Sequence record: KX011028.1
Length of the DNA stretch: 64,000 bases
Reading direction: 5' to 3' (one strand)
From: Staphylococcus phage pSco-10
The position numbers and the translations under genes were made by a program. Below are positions 2,501-48,564 of the stretch, one piece after another. Under the pieces are notes generated by a model, which had not been told where the DNA came from, searched no databases, and was given only the letters and a program-made list of their open reading frames with translations. Each line of letters begins with the position of its first letter. The first letter of the stretch is position 1.

Positions 2501-3550
2501 TTATAGGAATTCTTTAGCAATACTATATTCCTTACTATCTAAGAATGAGAAATCTTCATCTTTAATATCTTTGATATTTGTAGATTTTTCATAGTCTGCT
2601 TTACCACTAAAGAAATCAACATTTCGTAATCTATCTACATTAGTTTGATTTTCTACAATAGGGTTATACGGTTCAGGATTAAAGTAGTCTTCTCTACCTA
2701 GGTTTTGAAGAGCTCTGTTAAAGTTATACTGAACATAGTTAATTACGTCTTCACTTAATTCTAATGGGTCATATAGGCTATGTGTATATGCTACTTCATT
2801 AGTGTAAAGGATATCTAGTAATTCATAAGTTTCCTTATCTGCTAAGTTTTTCTCTTGTTCTGTTAAAAGATTATAATCATATTGAGCTGTTAATCCTACT
2901 GCTGAACCATGATAAGCTTCATCTTGGGTAATCTTATAAATGATAGCTCCTGATTGTGTCATCTGTCCTCTACCTGCAAGAAGTAGTGGGTAATAAAATC
3001 CTGAGTAGAATAATGCACTTTCTAAGAAGGCACTAGCTACTTTAGCCATATATCTATCGAATATAGTAGGGTTAGGTTTTAGTAACTGGTCATAGTAATA
3101 ACCAATAAACTGAGCTTTTACTTTTAAGAAGTCATTTTCTTCAACCCAAGTATCTAACAAATAACTTGTTTCTTTATTATTTAGTAATGTTGTAAAGATA
3201 TGACTATAAGATTTGGCATGTATCTCTTCCATACCACCCATAAACGCAAATACAGCCTGGTATTTAGGTCTTGGTTCATGATAGGATACTAAGTTCATAC
3301 CTTCCCCTCCTTGCTTTGTATCGAGCCCTGTGAGCCCTGCAAGGACTTTCTTATAAGTGTTCTTTTCACTCTCAGTTAAACTGTTCCAAGAACTTAAATC
3401 TCTTGATACATCAAACTCTTCAGGAGTCCAAAATTGGGAGATTCCTTGCTCCCAATAAATATCAGACATCCCGTCATCTTCAATATTCCAGTTTGTTGCT
3501 TTTAATACTGCATTTTTATTATGTTGTTTTACCTTTTGTGTAATATCCAT
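2501..3550 (-). CDS. nrdF: ribonucleotide reductase class Ib small (beta) subunit
   Basis: Di-iron ligand motifs EEIHAKSY and ...EAYHG..., plus the N-terminal ...NWNIEDD... signature. The likely start is the ATG at 3550 (MDITQ) with Shine-Dalgarno AAGGGAAA; the track's 3589 start would overlap the nrdE C-terminus. Confidence 0.9.
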   Translation of the reverse strand: MDITQKVKQHNKNAVLKATNWNIEDDGMSDIYWEQGISQFWTPEEFDVSRDLSSWNSLTESEKNTYKKVLAGLTGLDTKQGGEGMNLVSYHEPRPKYQAVFAFMGGMEEIHAKSYSHIFTTLLNNKETSYLLDTWVEENDFLKVKAQFIGYYYDQLLKPNPTIFDRYMAKVASAFLESALFYSGFYYPLLLAGRGQMTQSGAIIYKITQDEAYHGSAVGLTAQYDYNLLTEQEKNLADKETYELLDILYTNEVAYTHSLYDPLELSEDVINYVQYNFNRALQNLGREDYFNPEPYNPIVENQTNVDRLRNVDFFSGKADYEKSTNIKDIKDEDFSFLDSKEYSIAKEFL

Positions 3551-3563
3551 ATCTATTTCCCTT

Positions 3564-4532
3564 CTAAACCGAACATGTTTCACATTCAATAACAGAAAGT
3601 TTACGTGAACGTGTATAATATAGTGATTTTAATCCTTGTTCCCAAGCATAGTAGTATAGTGATACTAACTTATTAGTCGGTATCTCTGACTCTACATAAA
3701 GAATAGTAGATACTGCTTGGTCTGTGTGCTTCTGAACTACCGCACTTGTATTAATAATACGTTTATTATCAATCTTATAAGCTGTTTCTCCTTCATAGAA
3801 GAATTGAGTTATAGGACTTAGGTAAGGCATTGGGTAGTATGTCTCCATATCTCCATACTGTCTATTCTCAATAGCACTAGGTACAGGCATAATTGAGCTT
3901 GTAGCATTCTGTACGTATGATATAGATTGAGTAGGTGCTTCGGCTTTTCTATATCCATTATATAATCCATGAATTTTAACTGCTTTAGCCAATTCATCCC
4001 AATCATCTTGAGTTGGAATATAAATTTTACTTAATACTTTCTTAGCTTTTTCTGTTTTAGGTTGGTTAGACTCTCTAATATATCTTACAAAGTATTCACC
4101 TGTAGCATAATCAGATTTTTCAAACCCTTTAAATGGTTTACCTGTTTCTTTAGCCATTAACATAGAAGTTTTAATAGATTGGAAATTAATAGCACTGTAT
4201 AAACTATTTACTAAGTCTAATGCTTCTCTAGAACCGTAACTAATCATATTCTTAGCTAAAAGTCCATGTAAATTCATTGAACCTAAACCGATAGCTCTAA
4301 TGTCATCATTTGCTTTCTGAACACTAGGTAGATATGGTAAATCCATAATATCAGTAACTTTAGTTAATGCTCTTGTTCCGATATCTACAGATTCATTTAA
4401 TAAACCTTTTTCAACTACATTAACTAAATTAAGTGAACCTAATGTACAAACAACATCTCTATTAATAATATTCTTATTGCTGTGTGCATAAGGGTGTATT
4501 TCTGATACCTCTTGTAATTGTGAAATTTCTGT
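3564..4532 (-). CDS. nrdE: ribonucleotide reductase large subunit, exon 3 (C-terminal part)
   Basis: The frame is open upstream of the track ORF back to 4532 and reads TEISQLQEVSEI...VVCTLGSLNL...IGLGSMNLHG...CETCSV; it joins exon 2 (ending MSNLC) to restore the conserved NLC(S/T)EI motif. Confidence 0.85.
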   Translation of the reverse strand, partial: TEISQLQEVSEIHPYAHSNKNIINRDVVCTLGSLNLVNVVEKGLLNESVDIGTRALTKVTDIMDLPYLPSVQKANDDIRAIGLGSMNLHGLLAKNMISYGSREALDLVNSLYSAINFQSIKTSMLMAKETGKPFKGFEKSDYATGEYFVRYIRESNQPKTEKAKKVLSKIYIPTQDDWDELAKAVKIHGLYNGYRKAEAPTQSISYVQNATSSIMPVPSAIENRQYGDMETYYPMPYLSPITQFFYEGETAYKIDNKRIINTSAVVQKHTDQAVSTILYVESEIPTNKLVSLYYYAWEQGLKSLYYTRSRKLSVIECETCSV

Positions 4533-5473
4533 CCTGTATATTCAGTAATGGTCGTTAATCATTACCAGTTCTCTTATGAACTTCCTTATGTTTCCATAAG
4601 TGAGTAGACTATATCATTCTTCCTCTTGGGAAGTCCACCGTTTCGATTTAACAAGGCTTTATACGATTATTACTCGGTACCTTGACCACTTGGCTCTAAC
4701 CTTATCCCTTCACTTATGTGAATAGGTTACAGATAGTCGTTGGGCATTTAATATAAATTGTAATCATTTCTTTTCAAATTTTCTAGGTGTTAACCTTTTA
4801 TACTCAGGGTAATTATCAGAATCTAATCTATAACCAATTGTAGTATGTCCTATACCTAAAGTTCTAGATGCCTCAGATGTGCTCTCATATTTTATACCAT
4901 CTATCTCTATTGCTTTAGAGTTAGCTTTTTTTACAGAGTTTATCATCTTTTCTGTTTTAGGCTTACCGTACTGATGATTTCCTTGACCGCTCATTTGTTG
5001 CTTTCTCATCTCTCTAAGCTCTTCTTTTCGAGGGTTTGTTGTAAATATATCTCCTCCTACGGAAGATAATTTTACATTATAGTAATTATCATCATAAACT
5101 GCATTGGTTTCTAATATTAGTTCTTCCTCATCCTTTTCTAATTCTTCTGTCGTATAGTAATTTTTTATAATTTCTTTAGTAAAATTATTTTTACCATACT
5201 TCTTAATATCTTCTTGTAGATATCTTCCTGAACCTAAGTACTTTTCCCAATCATTTATTCTATTATAAAGAAATTTTCCGATATACTTTTTACCATTTAT
5301 AGAGCATGTAGTTATATAAACAGCTCCGATAGGTTTATTTTCCATAATATCACTCTCCTATGAGTGATTACAATTTATATATTTAGCAACGGATTACCAT
5401 ATCATTTGACGTAGGCTTCCCCGTTTTAGATGGATTTTTCGATAACGATTGCTCGTTAAAGGTGCATTTGTTT
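4533..5473 (-). ncRNA. group I intron (nrdE intron 2) containing a GIY-YIG endonuclease ORF
   Basis: The upstream exon ends in U (..UGU); the intron begins AAACAAAU followed by an internal guide sequence GCAC; an R-like CAACGACUAU and an S-like GAUAUAGUCUAC are present; omega-G at 4533; an in-frame stop lies 5 codons after the 5' splice site. Confidence 0.8.
4764..5345 (-). CDS. intron-encoded GIY-YIG homing endonuclease
   Basis: N-terminal GAVYITTCSINGKKYIGK (GIY...YIG pattern); C-terminal NUMOD-like repeats (GNHQYGKP; YESTSEASRTLGIGHTTIGYRL); Shine-Dalgarno AGGAGAG 8 nt upstream. Confidence 0.85.
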   Translation of the reverse strand: MENKPIGAVYITTCSINGKKYIGKFLYNRINDWEKYLGSGRYLQEDIKKYGKNNFTKEIIKNYYTTEELEKDEEELILETNAVYDDNYYNVKLSSVGGDIFTTNPRKEELREMRKQQMSGQGNHQYGKPKTEKMINSVKKANSKAIEIDGIKYESTSEASRTLGIGHTTIGYRLDSDNYPEYKRLTPRKFEKK

Positions 5474-5899
5474 ACACAAGTTACTCATTTTAACTTTACC
5501 TAAGTTTTTAAGAGGGTGGTTATCATTGGCATTATCAACATAGAATACGTAAGGATAACCTGATTCTAATTGTGTTTTAGCAATATCTGTCATGACTTCT
5601 CTAGCATCATGTTTTACTTTACCAATCTTATCATTAGTTAGTAGTTCTTCGTACCATTCATCAATGTTTAATTCATCTAGATACTTACCATATACTTTAT
5701 TAATATCATAAGTGTCAAAAGTATAGAAAGGTTTGCCTTCTTTAACTAATTCCATAAATTTATTAGGAATTGTAACACCAATAGATAATTTATCTAGTCT
5801 AACTGATTCACTGGCATTAATTTTCTTAGAACTTAATAAATCCAAAATATCATTGTGGAATATGTTTAAGTAAACTGCTCCACTTCCTTGTCTTACTCC
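5474..5899 (-). CDS. nrdE: ribonucleotide reductase large subunit, exon 2
   Basis: Reads GVRQGSGAVYLNIFHNDILDLLSSKK...GYPYVFYVDNAN...MSNLC, which matches the conserved KRRGAGAVYL..HPDI..F and NLC regions of class I RNR; the track ORF 5456..5845 is this exon running on into the intron. Confidence 0.85.
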
Positions 5900-6887
5900 C
5901 AGTTATGTTACGAATAGAATCGTTACTTCTATCCTTCTATATGTCACCATATAAGCTCAGACTATATCATAATCCTAGACGTTACTCTAGAATCCTCTCT
6001 ATTTCCAATCACTTGATTGTACTCTACTCAGTTATATTGCAATAAGCCCTCCCGGCGTAAAGCTCACTTTTCGATAGTCGTTGCACAAAATAACTTACCA
6101 ATTCATTAAATGTTTAAGTTTAACCCATCTTTTCTTACTTTTAATATGGTAGTAAATACTCTCTGTTGCTTTTGGTACTTCAGCTAGTATATAATTCTTG
6201 TCATACCCTTTATTTATCATATCAATTATAAGCTTAGCATCACTTTCAGTTATCGTTTTATCATAATTAACGAGTCCTGATTTATGTGCATGTGTATTAT
6301 TTTCTTCTATGGTACACCATTCTAGATTAAGTACACTATTATTTAATTTATCCCCATCTCTATGATTTATATACTTCTTACTTCTATCATTTTGAGGTAT
6401 AAAAGCCTTAGCTATTAATCTATGTTTAAATAGATACTTATATTTACCATTAACTTTAATTCTAAACTTGTGATAACCTTTTTTAATTTGAGAAGCTACG
6501 ACATAATTAAATTCTGTATTTACTAATCTACCATGATTAGTTATAGAGTAGTTTTTAAACTCTGTCTCTACTAGAATTTCAAAAGGTTCTCTTTTAAACT
6601 CAGGTAATCCCATTTTTACTTTAGTTAAGTTATTTTTATTTCGGTAATTTTGAATAGTTGTTTTAGGTATATCTAACTCTTTAGATAATTCCCTATCAGT
6701 CATAGTTAAATAATTATCTTTAATGAATTTCTGTATTTCTTTGTTTTCAGTTATTTTGCTCATGATTGTCTCCTTTTTTTCTTTTAGTATAGCATAAGTA
6801 TTACTAAAAGTCAAGTTTGGAGAGTTCCCATGAATTAAGAGAGTTTTTTAACCTATAATATCTCTACTATAGGGGGCAGTTTTATTT
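5900..6887 (-). ncRNA. group I intron (nrdE intron 1) containing an HNH endonuclease ORF
   Basis: The exon ends ..CAGGGU; the intron starts AAAUAAAACU with internal guide sequence GCCC; R-like GCAACGACUAUCG and S-like GAUAUAGUCUGAG are present; omega-G at 5900; an in-frame stop lies 1 codon after the 5' splice site. Confidence 0.8.
6095..6763 (-). CDS. intron-encoded HNH homing endonuclease
   Basis: NUMOD4-like YSITNHGRLVN; an HNH region NHRDGDKLNNSVLNLEWCTIEENNTHAHK; an N-terminal helix-turn-helix; the likely start is the ATG at 6763 with AAGGAG 6 nt upstream (the track start at 6814 is a TTG). Confidence 0.8.
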   Translation of the reverse strand: MSKITENKEIQKFIKDNYLTMTDRELSKELDIPKTTIQNYRNKNNLTKVKMGLPEFKREPFEILVETEFKNYSITNHGRLVNTEFNYVVASQIKKGYHKFRIKVNGKYKYLFKHRLIAKAFIPQNDRSKKYINHRDGDKLNNSVLNLEWCTIEENNTHAHKSGLVNYDKTITESDAKLIIDMINKGYDKNYILAEVPKATESIYYHIKSKKRWVKLKHLMNW

Positions 6888-7607
6888 ACCCTGGTCATAA
6901 ATACCTACTTTATGCTCAATAGCTTTAGCAAAAGCAATAACACCTTTACTTGAGTTAGGTCTATTACGTACTGGAGCACCTTTAGGTCTAATTCTAGTTA
7001 AGTCAATTGCAACTCCGCCACCATTAGAACTAGCGTTAGCTACACTATCTTCAACAAAGTTTAGAGACTCAATTGAATCATCTACTACAAATAGGTAACA
7101 TGAACTTAGTTCACCTCTATTGGCTTGTCCTGAGTTATTATACGTAGGTGTAGATGGTTGGAATGTTTGTTCCATAAGTTGTACTAGTAATTCTCTAGCT
7201 TTTACATAATCATTTTGGAATAGATATAAAGCTACTCGAACGTTATGTTGCTCATAATCTTCAACAAAAATAGGTTTCTCATCTTCATCATACTGTTTTG
7301 ATGCATAAGACTCATAAAACTTCTGACCTGCCATGAAACTAGGGAACTTAAAGTTAAAGCTGTAAGCTAACTTAGTCATTTCATCAATAATAGTATCAGG
7401 AACACTATCAAATATCTTATCATAAGTTCCTTCTTCTGTCAATACTCTAATTCTTTCTACTTCACTACTAAATTTTCTTGTGTTATCATCAATATATTTT
7501 AAATACTCATCTAAAGCTTCTTGGTCTTTATAGAGTTTATTTTTTCCATTATCATCTAATTGAGTTATCTCGTTGTTTAACTCAATCCATTTTCCATATG
7601 TTGCCAT
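6888..7607 (-). CDS. nrdE: ribonucleotide reductase large subunit, exon 1 (N-terminal part)
   Basis: N-terminal RNR large-subunit sequence with the SSCYLF loop and GGGVAIDLTRIRPKG, ending ...GIYDQG at the splice site. Joining 6888..7607, 5474..5899 and 3564..4532 gives one continuous 704-aa frame. Confidence 0.85.
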
Positions 7608-7621
7608 ATATCTCTCATCCT

Positions 7622-8053
7622 TTACGCTACTTTATATTTATTACTAAAGTGTTCTAATATTGGTTGTATCTCGTTAAAGTGTCCTGATTGCTCTACTTTA
7701 GCAATTAAAGGAATCTTAAACATCTCTGAAATCTTTGTACTTGCTCCACAGAAATTAGAGCCCCATTGTTTATTTCCTGTACCAATAACTTCTTTAGGGC
7801 TCCCATTAATTTCTAAGAATCTTTCTATTTGTTTAGGTATTGCACCTTTCATATAAGTAGGTGTTATTAGTATAAAAGGTTTATCTACTTTCTCTTTTCC
7901 ACTCTTAACTCTAAACGTTTCAAATGAATTATTAATATTAATTTTGTTTACTAGTCGTTCTGTTTGTCCTGTACCTGAAAAATATACAATTAACGGTCTT
8001 TCTTTACTTGTCATACTTATCTTACCTTCCTTATATATCACTAAGAAGGTCAT
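7622..8053 (-). CDS. nrdI: flavodoxin-like NrdI
   Basis: PLIVYFSGTGQTERLV matches the NrdI N-terminal motif; it sits directly upstream of nrdE; the probable start is the internal Met at about 8014. Confidence 0.75.
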   Translation of the reverse strand: MTFLVIYKEGKISMTSKERPLIVYFSGTGQTERLVNKININNSFETFRVKSGKEKVDKPFILITPTYMKGAIPKQIERFLEINGSPKEVIGTGNKQWGSNFCGASTKISEMFKIPLIAKVEQSGHFNEIQPILEHFSNKYKVA

Positions 8054-46394: not shown

Positions 46395-47399
46395 TTATAG
46401 ATAAATAAATTTATACTTTTTACAATGCTTACTTTTACCTTTTAAAACTTTACTTATATTTGGTGCTGATGCATTAATTAATCTAGCTACTTCATTAACA
46501 GTACCTTCAACTGTTTCACCTGTAACCATATGTGTTCCTTTAATCATTTTCTTTTGGCTTCTTTTACGTGCTTCTTCAGGTGTATATTTGTATTCTTCAT
46601 CTACTAGTCTAAACATTTTGTTATTCAAAGTAAGTCTATCAATATTACCATATAAGTAAGAAGATACCCCTTTTATTCCGGTCTCAATTTCACACTCTTT
46701 AATAGAGTTAAATATAGTTTCTTCATTTTTATCTAAATCATACATAGCTATTGATGTTGTTTTTCTTGGTCTGTTTTTGATACTCTCTTCTTTTTTGATT
46801 CTTCTTGTCTCTACATAAGTCTTTCTTTCTAATTCCTGCTCTTCATTTACTAAACTAAACTTGTATCCTGATGTGGAGTTTAGTTCCCCGATTAAACATT
46901 TGTAAAAATTACTATCTGTAAGTTTATACTTATTGATAATATCATTATAACTACCTGTATATAAATAACGACCATTCTTTGTGTAGACATTAATATCACC
47001 ATCAAATTTTAAAGAAGTAGTGTACACTTCTACTGTATCAGGTTTCTTAATCTCTGTAAAATAGTTTCTTAAAATTTGATATACTTGCTCTAAGGTTTTA
47101 TTTTTATAACTTATATCTATATAAATTATATTATTGTTATCACAATATTCTTTTTTAATTCTATCAAGTAATTTTATTCTATCAAAATCTAAATTGAATA
47201 CTTGTCTATAATGTTGTTCACCCATATATTCAATACAATAAAATTTTCCTTGGTATTCTACTAAAAAATCCATTCTTTGTTTTGTACCTATGTTGTTCCT
47301 AAAAGAATATTCTCGTTTATACTTCATATTATTAAAACCTAAAATTGAATCTACTAATCGTTCCCCATGAGAACCTAGTACTTTATCTGAATATATCAT
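46395..47399 (-). CDS. free-standing homing-endonuclease-like protein: Vsr/PD-(D/E)XK-like nuclease domain plus NUMOD-like DNA-binding repeats
   Basis: N-terminal DFLVEYQGKFYCIEYMGEQHY...DRIKKEYCDNNNIIYIDI fits the Vsr / DUF559-like D...(C)IE.xG.QH pattern; C-terminal FNSIKECEIETGIKGVSSYLYG and VNEVARLINASAPNISKVLKGKSKHCKKYKF are NUMOD-like; ATG at 47399 with GGAAGGTG 6 nt upstream. Confidence 0.6.
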   Translation of the reverse strand: MIYSDKVLGSHGERLVDSILGFNNMKYKREYSFRNNIGTKQRMDFLVEYQGKFYCIEYMGEQHYRQVFNLDFDRIKLLDRIKKEYCDNNNIIYIDISYKNKTLEQVYQILRNYFTEIKKPDTVEVYTTSLKFDGDINVYTKNGRYLYTGSYNDIINKYKLTDSNFYKCLIGELNSTSGYKFSLVNEEQELERKTYVETRRIKKEESIKNRPRKTTSIAMYDLDKNEETIFNSIKECEIETGIKGVSSYLYGNIDRLTLNNKMFRLVDEEYKYTPEEARKRSQKKMIKGTHMVTGETVEGTVNEVARLINASAPNISKVLKGKSKHCKKYKFIYL

Positions 47400-47431
47400 T
47401 GATATCACCTTCCTATTATTAATATATCATA

Positions 47432-47460
47432 AGTGTACCATAACTTTTACACTTTGTCAA
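47432..47460 (-). promoter_or_regulatory. sigma-A promoter (TTGACA, 17 bp spacer, TGgTACACT) driving the endonuclease gene
   Basis: Immediately downstream of the terminator at 47462-47494. Confidence 0.5.
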
Positions 47461-47494: not shown

Positions 47495-47517
47495 AATAGG
47501 AAATTTAAGTTCTAGCC

Positions 47518-47531
47518 TTATCTGATGCTGT
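47518..47531 (-). CDS. tail tube protein, inferred exon 3 (last 4 codons plus stop)
   Basis: After the omega-G at 47532 the frame set by exon 2 reads (u)ac agc auc aga uaa (Y S I R stop); placement is by alignment with the 3' end of intron A. An alternative omega-G at 47528 would give SSDKART. Confidence 0.4.
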
Positions 47532-47828
47532 CCTCTATACCCTATCTTTCGATATATTTTAAAGGGAGTAGACTATACCATAATCTTAATGTGTAACTAA
47601 GACTCACTTATTATAGTCGTTGAAGCTTCCCACTCTCGTAGGCTTGCCTGCGTATCATCTATTTTACTGTACTTAGGGTTTAACCTTATACTATACTAGA
47701 TATTTTTTCTGATTTCTCAACATTCAAGCTTACCCTTTCAGGTTACTTTGTAGTTATCTAGTCTTTAAGACTTTCACGCAATTTAAAGTGTTTTCTATGC
47801 TTGTCACCAAACATAGCCTCTATTAGTT
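47532..47828 (-). ncRNA. ORF-less group I intron B in the tail tube gene
   Basis: The exon ends ..CCUUU; the intron starts AACUAAUA with internal guide sequence GAGG (pairs with CUUU using G-U wobbles); a P2-like hairpin; P AAAUUGCGUGAAAG; Q UACGCAGGCAAGCC; R CAACGACUAUAAU; S AAGAUUAUGGUAUAGUCUAC; ends ...GGGUAUAGAGG. Confidence 0.7.
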
Positions 47829-47892
47829 AAAGGTAGCTAAACTCAATTTCTTCTGTTACAATTTCATTTGTCTGCCACGTCTCGTTGTAGTT
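47829..47892 (-). CDS. tail tube protein, inferred exon 2 (64 nt)
   Basis: The only open frame between the two introns: aac uac aac gag acg ugg ... uac cuu u, which reads NYNETWQTNEIVTEEIEFSYL; it starts right after a G (..UAAGUG|) and ends in U. Confidence 0.5.
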
Positions 47893-48225
47893 CACTTATA
47901 CCCTATCTCTCGATATATTTAAAGGGGTTAGACTGTCCCATGTCCCTTATTTCTAAGGTGACTACCTATTACAGTCGTTGAAGCTTCCCACTCTCGTAGG
48001 CTTGCCTGCGGATTTCCTATTGATTGAGTACTTAGGACATTAATAATGTGTCGTTAGTTATTAATGCTTTTATCTCACCATATACTATCCAATTAATTTT
48101 TTCTGATTTCTCAACATTCACGCTTACTCTTTCAAGTTACGTTGTAGTTTAATTGGCTTTAAGGTGTTCCCGCAATTTCAGGTATTATTCGACTATACAT
48201 TACTGTATAGAAGCAACAATTATTT
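47893..48225 (-). ncRNA. ORF-less group I intron A in the tail tube gene
   Basis: The exon ends ..GCCAAU; the intron starts AAAUAAUU with internal guide sequence GUUG (pairs with CAAU, G-U at the splice site); P2 hairpin CUAUAC..GUAUAG; P AAAUUGCGGGAAC; Q AAAUCCGCAGGCAAGCC; R CAACGACUGUAAU; S GGGACAGUCUAAC. The P7 strands are GACUG/CAGUC here versus GACUA/UAGUC in intron B, a compensatory change. An in-frame stop lies 1 codon after the 5' splice site. Confidence 0.75.
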
Positions 48226-48564
48226 ATTGGCACTACATCCGTGGTAACTAATAATAACTTGTTTTGTTAAGTTATCTACTACTAAAATATCAATGATATC
48301 TTTCTTAAGAATTTCTTCACCAAGTGAAGCATATCCTAAATCTGCAAAGTTTTCTTTTTTCATACGTAAACGTTCTACTGTAATTGTACCCTCATAACGT
48401 AAGTATACGTGTTCTTGAGGCATGATAGAACCGATTTCGTATACACCAGTTGTACCATATTCACGAGTACCTGATGCTGATTGTGCTCTTCCTACCGGTT
48501 TACCTTTAATCATAAGTAGGACGGTATTACCAGTATGGACGGTTTGTTTAGCTTCTGATGCCAT
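48226..48564 (-). CDS. putative tail tube protein, exon 1 (113 codons); the track ORF 48220..48564 runs on into the intron to give an artefactual ...SANK stop
   Basis: ORF directly downstream of the sheath gene; its 3' end is followed by the group I intron start motif. Confidence 0.55.

Follow-up and report, generated by a model that had tools for sequence, protein, structure and literature searches.

Is the ribonucleotide reductase (RNR) large-subunit gene of Staphylococcus phage pSco-10 a set of separately translated fragments, or a single gene whose parts are rejoined by splicing? The question is posed by three open reading frames (ORFs) in the 64,000-nucleotide (nt) stretch of sequence record KX011028.1 analysed here (hereafter, the window). 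These ORFs, at 6882..7607, 5456..5845 and 3564..4346, each hold a consecutive part of such a protein, and an endonuclease ORF lies in each of the two intervals between them, all where the initial annotation of this DNA had placed them. Coordinates below are those of the window, and every feature to which they are assigned lies on its minus strand. Our analysis favours, with a probability of roughly 93%, an nrdI-nrdE-nrdF operon in which nrdE is interrupted by two mobile group I introns. The layout proposed earlier, three exons separated by one intron with an HNH gene and one with a GIY-YIG gene, is supported by homologues, covariation and Pfam matches.

When the segments 7607..6888, 5899..5474 and 4532..3564 are joined, they form a coding sequence (CDS) of 2115 nt that encodes 704 amino acids (aa) in the continuous frame predicted at the outset, with a single, terminal stop codon. 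Exon 1 (6888..7607, 720 nt, aa 1-240) ends in ...YDQG and carries the Pfam RNR_N and lgN domains and the start of the barrel domain, colinear with the intronless nrdE of phage vB_SauM_JDYN. Exon 2 (5474..5899, 426 nt, aa 241-382) runs from GVRQGSG to MSNLC, and exon 3 (3564..4532, 969 nt including the stop, aa 383-704) from TEISQ to CETCSV. The uninterrupted JDYN gene is also 2115 nt long, and its alignment with the joined CDS is gap-free, with 97.7% of nt and 702 of 704 residues identical, an agreement in length and identity far beyond chance. Register is therefore kept in the alignment that had been suggested as a check, and all three exons are intact, with no frameshift or internal stop relative to JDYN. 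In the joined protein, Pfam recognizes the RNR_N, all-alpha and barrel domains (E 1e-17, 1e-12 and 3e-139), and the motifs SSCYLF, SNLCTEI and CTLGSLN are all found, the thiyl-radical motif SNLC|TEI being restored by the join between exons 2 and 3.

Both predicted junctions, 6888|5899 and 5474|4532, restore exact colinearity with intronless homologues. As had been noted, both upstream exons end in U (T in the DNA) and both inserts in G (5900 and 4533). The DNA alignment by itself fixes neither junction to the single base: at junction 2 there is a one-base ambiguity, since an A follows both boundaries, and at junction 1 a one-base leftward shift is allowed, since GGT and GGG both encode glycine. 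The coordinates given here were chosen because of the group I rule of U at -1 and a terminal G, together with the annotations of the Twort and Twillingate introns. The gene is a class Ib nrdE according to its domains and its neighbours, namely nrdI upstream (7622..8053, flavodoxin-like; Pfam Flavodoxin_NdrI, E 1.5e-24) and nrdF, encoding the small subunit, downstream (2501..3550; Pfam Ribonuc_red_sm, E 1.4e-65).

The same ORFs could belong to an nrdE that is truly fragmented, with two free-standing endonuclease genes and three separately translated polypeptides that reassemble. In Aeromonas phage Aeh1, nrdA is reportedly split in this manner by mobE into nrdA-a and nrdA-b, and the records of 184DA, OPT-SC01, JDF86, Golestan and F1 annotate the nrdE pieces as separate CDSs. 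Furthermore, the first start codon of the listed piece ORFs lies downstream of the junctions. However, exons 2 and 3 have neither a start codon nor a Shine-Dalgarno (SD) sequence at their boundaries, and translation from the first possible starts (TTG at 5845 and ATG at 4346) would drop 18 and 62 conserved residues, respectively, including GVRQGSGAVYL and TEI...CTLGSLN. The inserts also carry a complete, covarying group I core, and one of them is homologous to an intron of phage Twort from a locus published as self-splicing: Landthaler et al. 2002 (NAR 30:1935), in a title cited in PMC3984707, speak of two self-splicing Twort nrdE introns. A gene in true fragments is thus very unlikely.

Inteins, or another in-frame insertion handled at the protein level, offer a further way to keep the exons in one product. 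Both insertion sites fall in active-site motifs, and RNR large subunits are frequent intein hosts. Each insert nevertheless closes the exon frame almost at once, with an in-frame TAA at 6884-6882, two codons past the 5' splice site of intron 1, and another at 5458-5456, six codons past that of intron 2. These in-frame stops in both inserts refute the intein reading, whose remaining probability is negligible; stop codons part the endonuclease ORFs, which have starts, stops and SD sequences of their own, from the exon frame, and neither a Pfam intein nor a Hint domain matched.

Two group I introns are thus the preferred reading, and their relatives describe each of them further. Intron 1 (5900..6887, 988 nt, last base G) is of IA type and is absent from most related phages. 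Its P1 helix pairs GGGU|A with UGCCC and sets a U·G pair at the 5' splice site. Twort nrdE-I1 (GenBank AF485080, intron 858-1286) lies in the same host gene at the same codon boundary, ..QG|G.., and the first 20 and last 13 bases of the two introns are near-identical (AAAUAAAACUGCCCCCUAUAG.../...CGUAACAUAACUG in intron 1 and AAACAAUUCUGCCCCCUAUA.../...CGUAACAUAAUUG in Twort). Their P1-P9 cores are homologous, with 76-79% identity over the non-ORF parts, and both have an expanded P5 loop with promoter-like hexamers and an SD and AUG in P5' and P4'. They differ in content: Twort nrdE-I1 measures 429 nt and holds a 46-codon endonuclease remnant, whereas the 988-nt intron 1 holds a full 222-aa HNH gene. 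The remnant corresponds to aa 1-12 fused to aa 195-219 of the window's HNH protein, and the Twort intron is short because of this internal deletion in its endonuclease gene. By these comparisons, intron 1 is the intact version of what is known from Twort only as a degenerate intron. Twort's other nrdE intron, which carries I-TwoI, lies much further downstream, near aa 580-590, and not at NLC|TEI.

The core of intron 1 also has relatives outside nrdE, in a Silviavirus DNA helicase gene intron, in a recombinase gene intron and in an IMG/VR contig. The helicase intron of Stau2 (Silviavirus) is ORF-less, 247 nt long and scores 91 bits with the Rfam Intron_gpI model. The Silviavirus recombinase intron shares the core, the P5-loop hexamers and the SD/AUG layout of intron 1 and holds only a 26-codon remnant ORF, a second case of endonuclease decay in this lineage.

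Intron 2 (4533..5473, 941 nt, last base G) is IA2-like, with P7.1 and P7.2, and interrupts nrdE directly 3' of the codon for the active-site cysteine (SNLC|TEI), the same site being used in all 11 homologues examined. In its P1, GUGU|A pairs with UGCAC; the U·G pair is invariant in 12 of 12 family members, while the pair between position +1 and the guide covaries, from A-U to U-A in SEP9. JDF86, OPT-SC01, Twillingate (MH321491), phiIPLA-C1C and SEP9 (KF929199) share the SNLC|TEI site at 82-96% nt identity, and in these five phages this GIY-YIG type is the only intron in nrdE. The intron of this group, made up of Sepunavirus, Sextaecvirus and related phages, has the same 941-nt layout and the same 193-aa endonuclease (176-182 of 193 aa identical). 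SEP9, PT1-4 and Enterococcus phage EF1 share the ribozyme core of intron 2 but differ in the P6a stem, and their endonuclease gene has diverged. In the databases, the gene is 'interrupted by intron' according to the Twillingate record, which also lists a GIY-YIG homing endonuclease, and the SEP9 record has a 'group I intron endonuclease'. Moreover, phage vB_SpsM-DH2 has an ORF-less copy of 358 nt at the intron 2 site that is detected by Rfam RF00028 (Intron_gpI) with 65.3 bits, against a gathering score of 50.

A well-known system resembles intron 2 in several respects. The T4 td intron, which carries I-TevI, belongs to group IA2 and, like intron 2, resides in a phage gene of nucleotide metabolism. 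Both have an IA2-type core, a GIY-YIG gene extending out of P6a, an I-TevI-like C-terminal DNA-binding domain in the encoded protein, and a hairpin over the SD upstream of the ORF. The host genes and ribozyme sequences are different.

Compensatory changes argue for the proposed RNA structures. The endonuclease loops were replaced by GAAA, homologues were aligned with MAFFT, and the pairs of the structure named from the window copy were counted. In the intron 2 family (12 sequences, 91 pairs), 96.6% of the cells were paired and 41 pairs had changed on both sides; none of 500 shuffles reached the observed values, and slid controls gave 33-46% paired cells with 4-6 two-sided changes. The intron 1 family (7 sequences, 70 pairs) behaved similarly, with 95.0% of cells paired and two-sided changes at 27 of 70 pairs, compared with 0 of 500 shuffles reaching the observed values and slid controls of 35-48% paired and 2-6 two-sided changes. 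Compensatory changes in intron 2 fell in P1 (the +1 pair), P2, P3, P4, P5, P6a, P7.1, P7.2, P8, P9, P9.1 and P9.2, and the extra helices P7.1, P7.1a, P7.2 and P7.2a all showed them. P7.2 of intron 1 is likewise supported by covariation. P7 itself (GACUA/UAGUC) is uninformative by this measure, since it is invariant in both families.

Unconstrained minimum free energy (MFE) folds of the ORF-deleted forms recovered P2-P6a, P7.2, P8 and P9 in both introns and P7.1 in intron 2, with MFE z-scores of -4.85 for intron 2 and -5.16 for intron 1. The core helices are all intact in the window copies, and the terminal G (omega-G) is conserved in all homologues examined. The R/S-like elements pointed out in the initial annotation, CAACGACTA and GATATAGTC, each occur once per insert, on the minus strand and in the right order, CAACGACTA at 6075-6083 and 4734-4742 and GATATAGTC at 5960-5968 and 4607-4615. 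As the subgroups are generally defined, the modelled P7.1 and P7.2, lying between P7 and P3', assign intron 2 to IA2, to which intron 1 probably belongs as well.

Each intron holds an endonuclease gene in P6a. The HNH gene of intron 1 (6095..6763, 222 aa) occupies the P6a loop; its ORF was listed as 6095..6814, and ATG 6763 is the likely true start. The protein matches Pfam HNH_3 at 35.8 bits (cut-off 24.8; E 6e-9) and PHROG 59 (E 8e-33). It also aligns over the HNH region, including HxDG..NN...NLxW, with I-HmuI, from the SPO1 DNA polymerase intron, and with I-TwoI, from Twort nrdE-I2, although at only about 30% identity. In the comparison with I-HmuI (PDB 1U3E; E 1.4e-8), HRDGDKLNN..NLEW is aligned to HKDGNKDNN..NLRW, and identity to I-TwoI is 30% (E 5e-11); the intron 1 enzyme is probably a nickase. 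The HNH proteins of 184DA and PG-2021_35 have the same 222-aa length and share 208-211 of 222 residues.

The start of the HNH gene is embedded in the ribozyme. The 3' strand of P5 doubles as its SD sequence, GGAGA (6773-6769), and that of P4 contains its ATG (6763-6761). Within the expanded P5 loop, a promoter-like TTGACT-17-TATACT with TG (6786..6814) matches the consensus at 10 of 12 positions, and the TTGACT/TATACT hexamers recur in Twort nrdE-I1 and in the Silviavirus recombinase intron. In the MFE fold, these bases of intron 1 pair into a 9-bp P5a hairpin, which is conserved. An internal promoter in the P5 loop of intron 1 is therefore rejected as an established feature, the region having no excess of such sites and the bases forming that hairpin; it is kept as a possible one. 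Another promoter-like sequence, TTGTAA-18-TATTAT at 5373-5344, was dismissed, as it ends after the ATG of the GIY-YIG gene. The 5' and 3' ends of the HNH ORF are joined by a perfect 11-bp complement, AAUUCAUUAAA / UUUAAUGAAUU, at 6719-6729 and 6100-6110. It could be an extension of P6a that brings the ORF ends together; it is not the longest stem in the same regions of PG-2021_35 or 184DA.

The GIY-YIG gene of intron 2 (4764..5345, 193 aa) is cleanly inserted in the terminal loop of P6a, a perfect 16-bp stem with arms at 5380-5365 and 4766-4751, and the gene's TGA stop forms the first three bases of the 3' arm. Its product matches SegE_GIY-YIG (40.0 bits, cut-off 25, E 5e-10) and I-TevI_DNA-bd (41.1 bits, cut-off 27, E 2e-10), while the generic PF01541 model reached 17.1 bits, under its cut-off of 22.6. 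PHROG 314, 'homing endonuclease', was matched with E 6e-35 and the I-TevI DNA-binding domain 1I3J with E 0.055. A CACUC-loop-GAGUG hairpin at 5351-5366 overlaps the SD sequence of this gene and is kept in 8 of 8 close intron 2 copies examined with that endonuclease type, in BE25 despite a different loop; it is a possible brake on endonuclease translation from the pre-mRNA. Both endonucleases look intact, because their lengths equal those of their closest homologues at 91-95% identity. Their activity, targets and expression control are predicted here from sequence.

Several observations weigh against the two-intron interpretation or limit its reach. Splicing in pSco-10 we infer from homology to Twort nrdE-I1. 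Covariation was assessed on ORF-deleted alignments, and the tested structures came from the window sequence, which biases the share of paired cells towards them. P7.1 of intron 1 appears in the MFE fold and could not be fixed by covariation, the candidate stems of 184DA and the window disagreeing, and it was left out of the tested structure. For P10, the guide region was compared with the opening bases of exons 2 and 3, and no convincing pairing was seen for either intron. Promoter-like sites are not enriched across the region, which has 21 of them against 26 expected from shuffles of this AT-rich DNA. Finally, the Rfam group I scan of the two intron intervals that had been proposed as a check yielded no match: RF00028 had no hit at the gathering score in the whole window or at E<=10 in 4300-7000, where only chance-level snoRNA matches were returned. 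This negative is weak, uninformative evidence because the same model, applied as a control to the Twort nrdE record, also finds no match at E<=1. The two introns of the window's nrdE lie beyond the reach of RF00028 because of their P6a insertions of about 600 nt, to which intron 1 adds a 48-nt P5 loop. The Rfam group I model thus misses endonuclease-bearing introns, for which homology to intron-less alleles is the more reliable detector.

A further alternative is a locus in which one or both introns no longer splice efficiently, nrdE being in decay and the host RNR substituting for it. Nothing speaks positively for such a loss, to which the lack of an evident P10 and a U·U mismatch in P5 of the window copy of intron 2 could at most be related. 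It is at odds with exons that retain 702 of 704 aa of an uninterrupted homologue with no frameshift or stop, with core helices that are all intact, and with the persistence of near-identical introns in many viable phages. We regard it as improbable, and introns that splice remain the preferred reading.

Mobility is suggested by the distribution of the introns among relatives. Megablast searches with this region and with another stretch of 24 kb matched the window DNA to more than 300 Staphylococcus myophages (Herelleviridae, Twortvirinae); none is identical to it, and the best match reaches 96.5% identity. Among 314 related records, most cover the exons only, without either intron. The exons and intron 1 are covered in PG-2021_35, vB_SauM_EW1-9 and EW13, and 184DA, and the exons and intron 2 in OPT-SC01, Golestan-105-M, JDF86, Twillingate, phiIPLA-C1C, BE25 and S2G3, as well as in the siphoviruses SEP9, F1 and PT1-4 and in Enterococcus phage EF1. 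Both introns in a single nrdE were found in none of the 314 related records, and scans of IMG/VR, metagenome contigs and GTDB genome contigs with exact patterns of the two introns, spaced by 415-432 nt, returned nothing. This patchy distribution of none, either or both is the pattern expected of mobile introns. Annotation notes in JDYN and JDF86 cite pSco10_62 (nrdF), pSco10_64 (GIY-YIG protein) and pSco10_68 (nrdI), a numbering by which five ORFs would separate nrdF from nrdI in phage pSco-10.

The exon sequences next to the insertion sites also differ between occupied and empty alleles. Intron 1 alleles read CAG GGT|GGA GTA and empty ones CAA GGY|GGA GTT, and intron 2 alleles read TTG TGT| and empty ones TTA TGY|. 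At exon position -4 (6891 and 5477), intron-bearing alleles therefore have a synonymous G where empty alleles have A, and the G adds one G-C pair to P1. Co-conversion, selection for splicing and protection from the endonuclease are all possible causes. Beside this, the first 45 nt of exon 2 (5855-5899) hold a cluster of synonymous differences that is shared with none of the five close relatives compared, with or without intron 1, and the 90-nt bin 721-810 of nrdE contains nine differences from JDYN. The patch may represent a co-conversion tract from an unsampled donor.

Taken together, the favoured explanation would operate as follows. The nrdI-nrdE-nrdF operon would be transcribed as a single pre-mRNA, and ribosomes entering either intron would halt at the in-frame UAA within two or six codons. 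Each intron would fold as a canonical P1-P9 ribozyme, with the 5' splice site marked by a U·G pair in P1 and P7 formed by CGACUA/UAGUC, and would excise itself by two guanosine-initiated transesterifications. Translation of the ligated message would then yield a class Ib NrdE of 704 aa in which the active-site motifs QGG and SNLCTEI are intact. During mixed infection, the targets cut by the HNH (I-HmuI/I-TwoI-like) and GIY-YIG (I-TevI-like) enzymes would be those nrdE alleles of related phages that have no intron, and recombinational repair would copy the intron along with short flanking exon tracts. Expression of the intron 1 endonuclease would be controlled by burial of its SD and AUG in P5/P4 and possibly by an internal promoter in the P5 loop, and that of the intron 2 endonuclease by the SD-covering hairpin before its ORF.

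It has been known since 2002 that nrdE of Twort-like phages can contain group I introns, and several records already annotate the intron 2 family. What is new is that one nrdE combines the two introns and that Twort nrdE-I1 is found with its endonuclease gene intact. The latter form is also present in 184DA, PG-2021_35 and the EW phages, where it is not annotated as an intron. More tentatively, and as less likely than not, we suggest as a joint claim that the window holds the first sampled combination of a full-length, HNH-bearing Twort nrdE-I1 and a GIY-YIG intron at the catalytic-cysteine site in one nrdE, and that the SD/AUG-in-P5/P4 arrangement with a promoter-like P5 loop is a layout found in three intron lineages. 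If this layout is functional, translation of the endonuclease and folding of the ribozyme would be mutually exclusive, and the endonuclease would be expressed only from transcripts begun within the intron, in which the 5' strands of P4 and P5 are missing. The window copy and the Twort remnant would then form a matched pair for the cycle of endonuclease gain, decay and loss. For annotation, nrdE here is one three-exon gene with a 704-aa protein, where several GenBank relatives list its pieces as separate 'ribonucleotide reductase' CDSs and the endonucleases as 'hypothetical proteins'. With relatives that have none, either or, here, both introns, the locus offers a clean snapshot of intron mobility, the biological value of which is modest.

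A second three-exon gene is present elsewhere in the window, at 47505-48564. This tail tube gene, a homologue of Twort orf142, has exons at 48564..48226, 47892..47830 and 47531..47505 that join into 429 nt encoding 142 aa. Its two ORF-less, group-I-like introns, at 48225..47893 (333 nt) and 47829..47532 (298 nt), each follow a T and end in G, and each contains P/Q/R/S-like elements and a long P5 extension; neither matched Rfam in the whole-window scan at the gathering score. Phage SA3 has the same tail tube layout at 99.1% identity, and most relatives cover the exons only. Just downstream lies a 337-aa ORF (46395-47408) with a TTGACA-like hexamer ahead of it, near 47460. Its product matches PHROG 7140 ('intron encoded nuclease', E 7e-100) as well as the I-HmuI NUMOD-like domain, and this nuclease gene looks free-standing rather than intron-borne.

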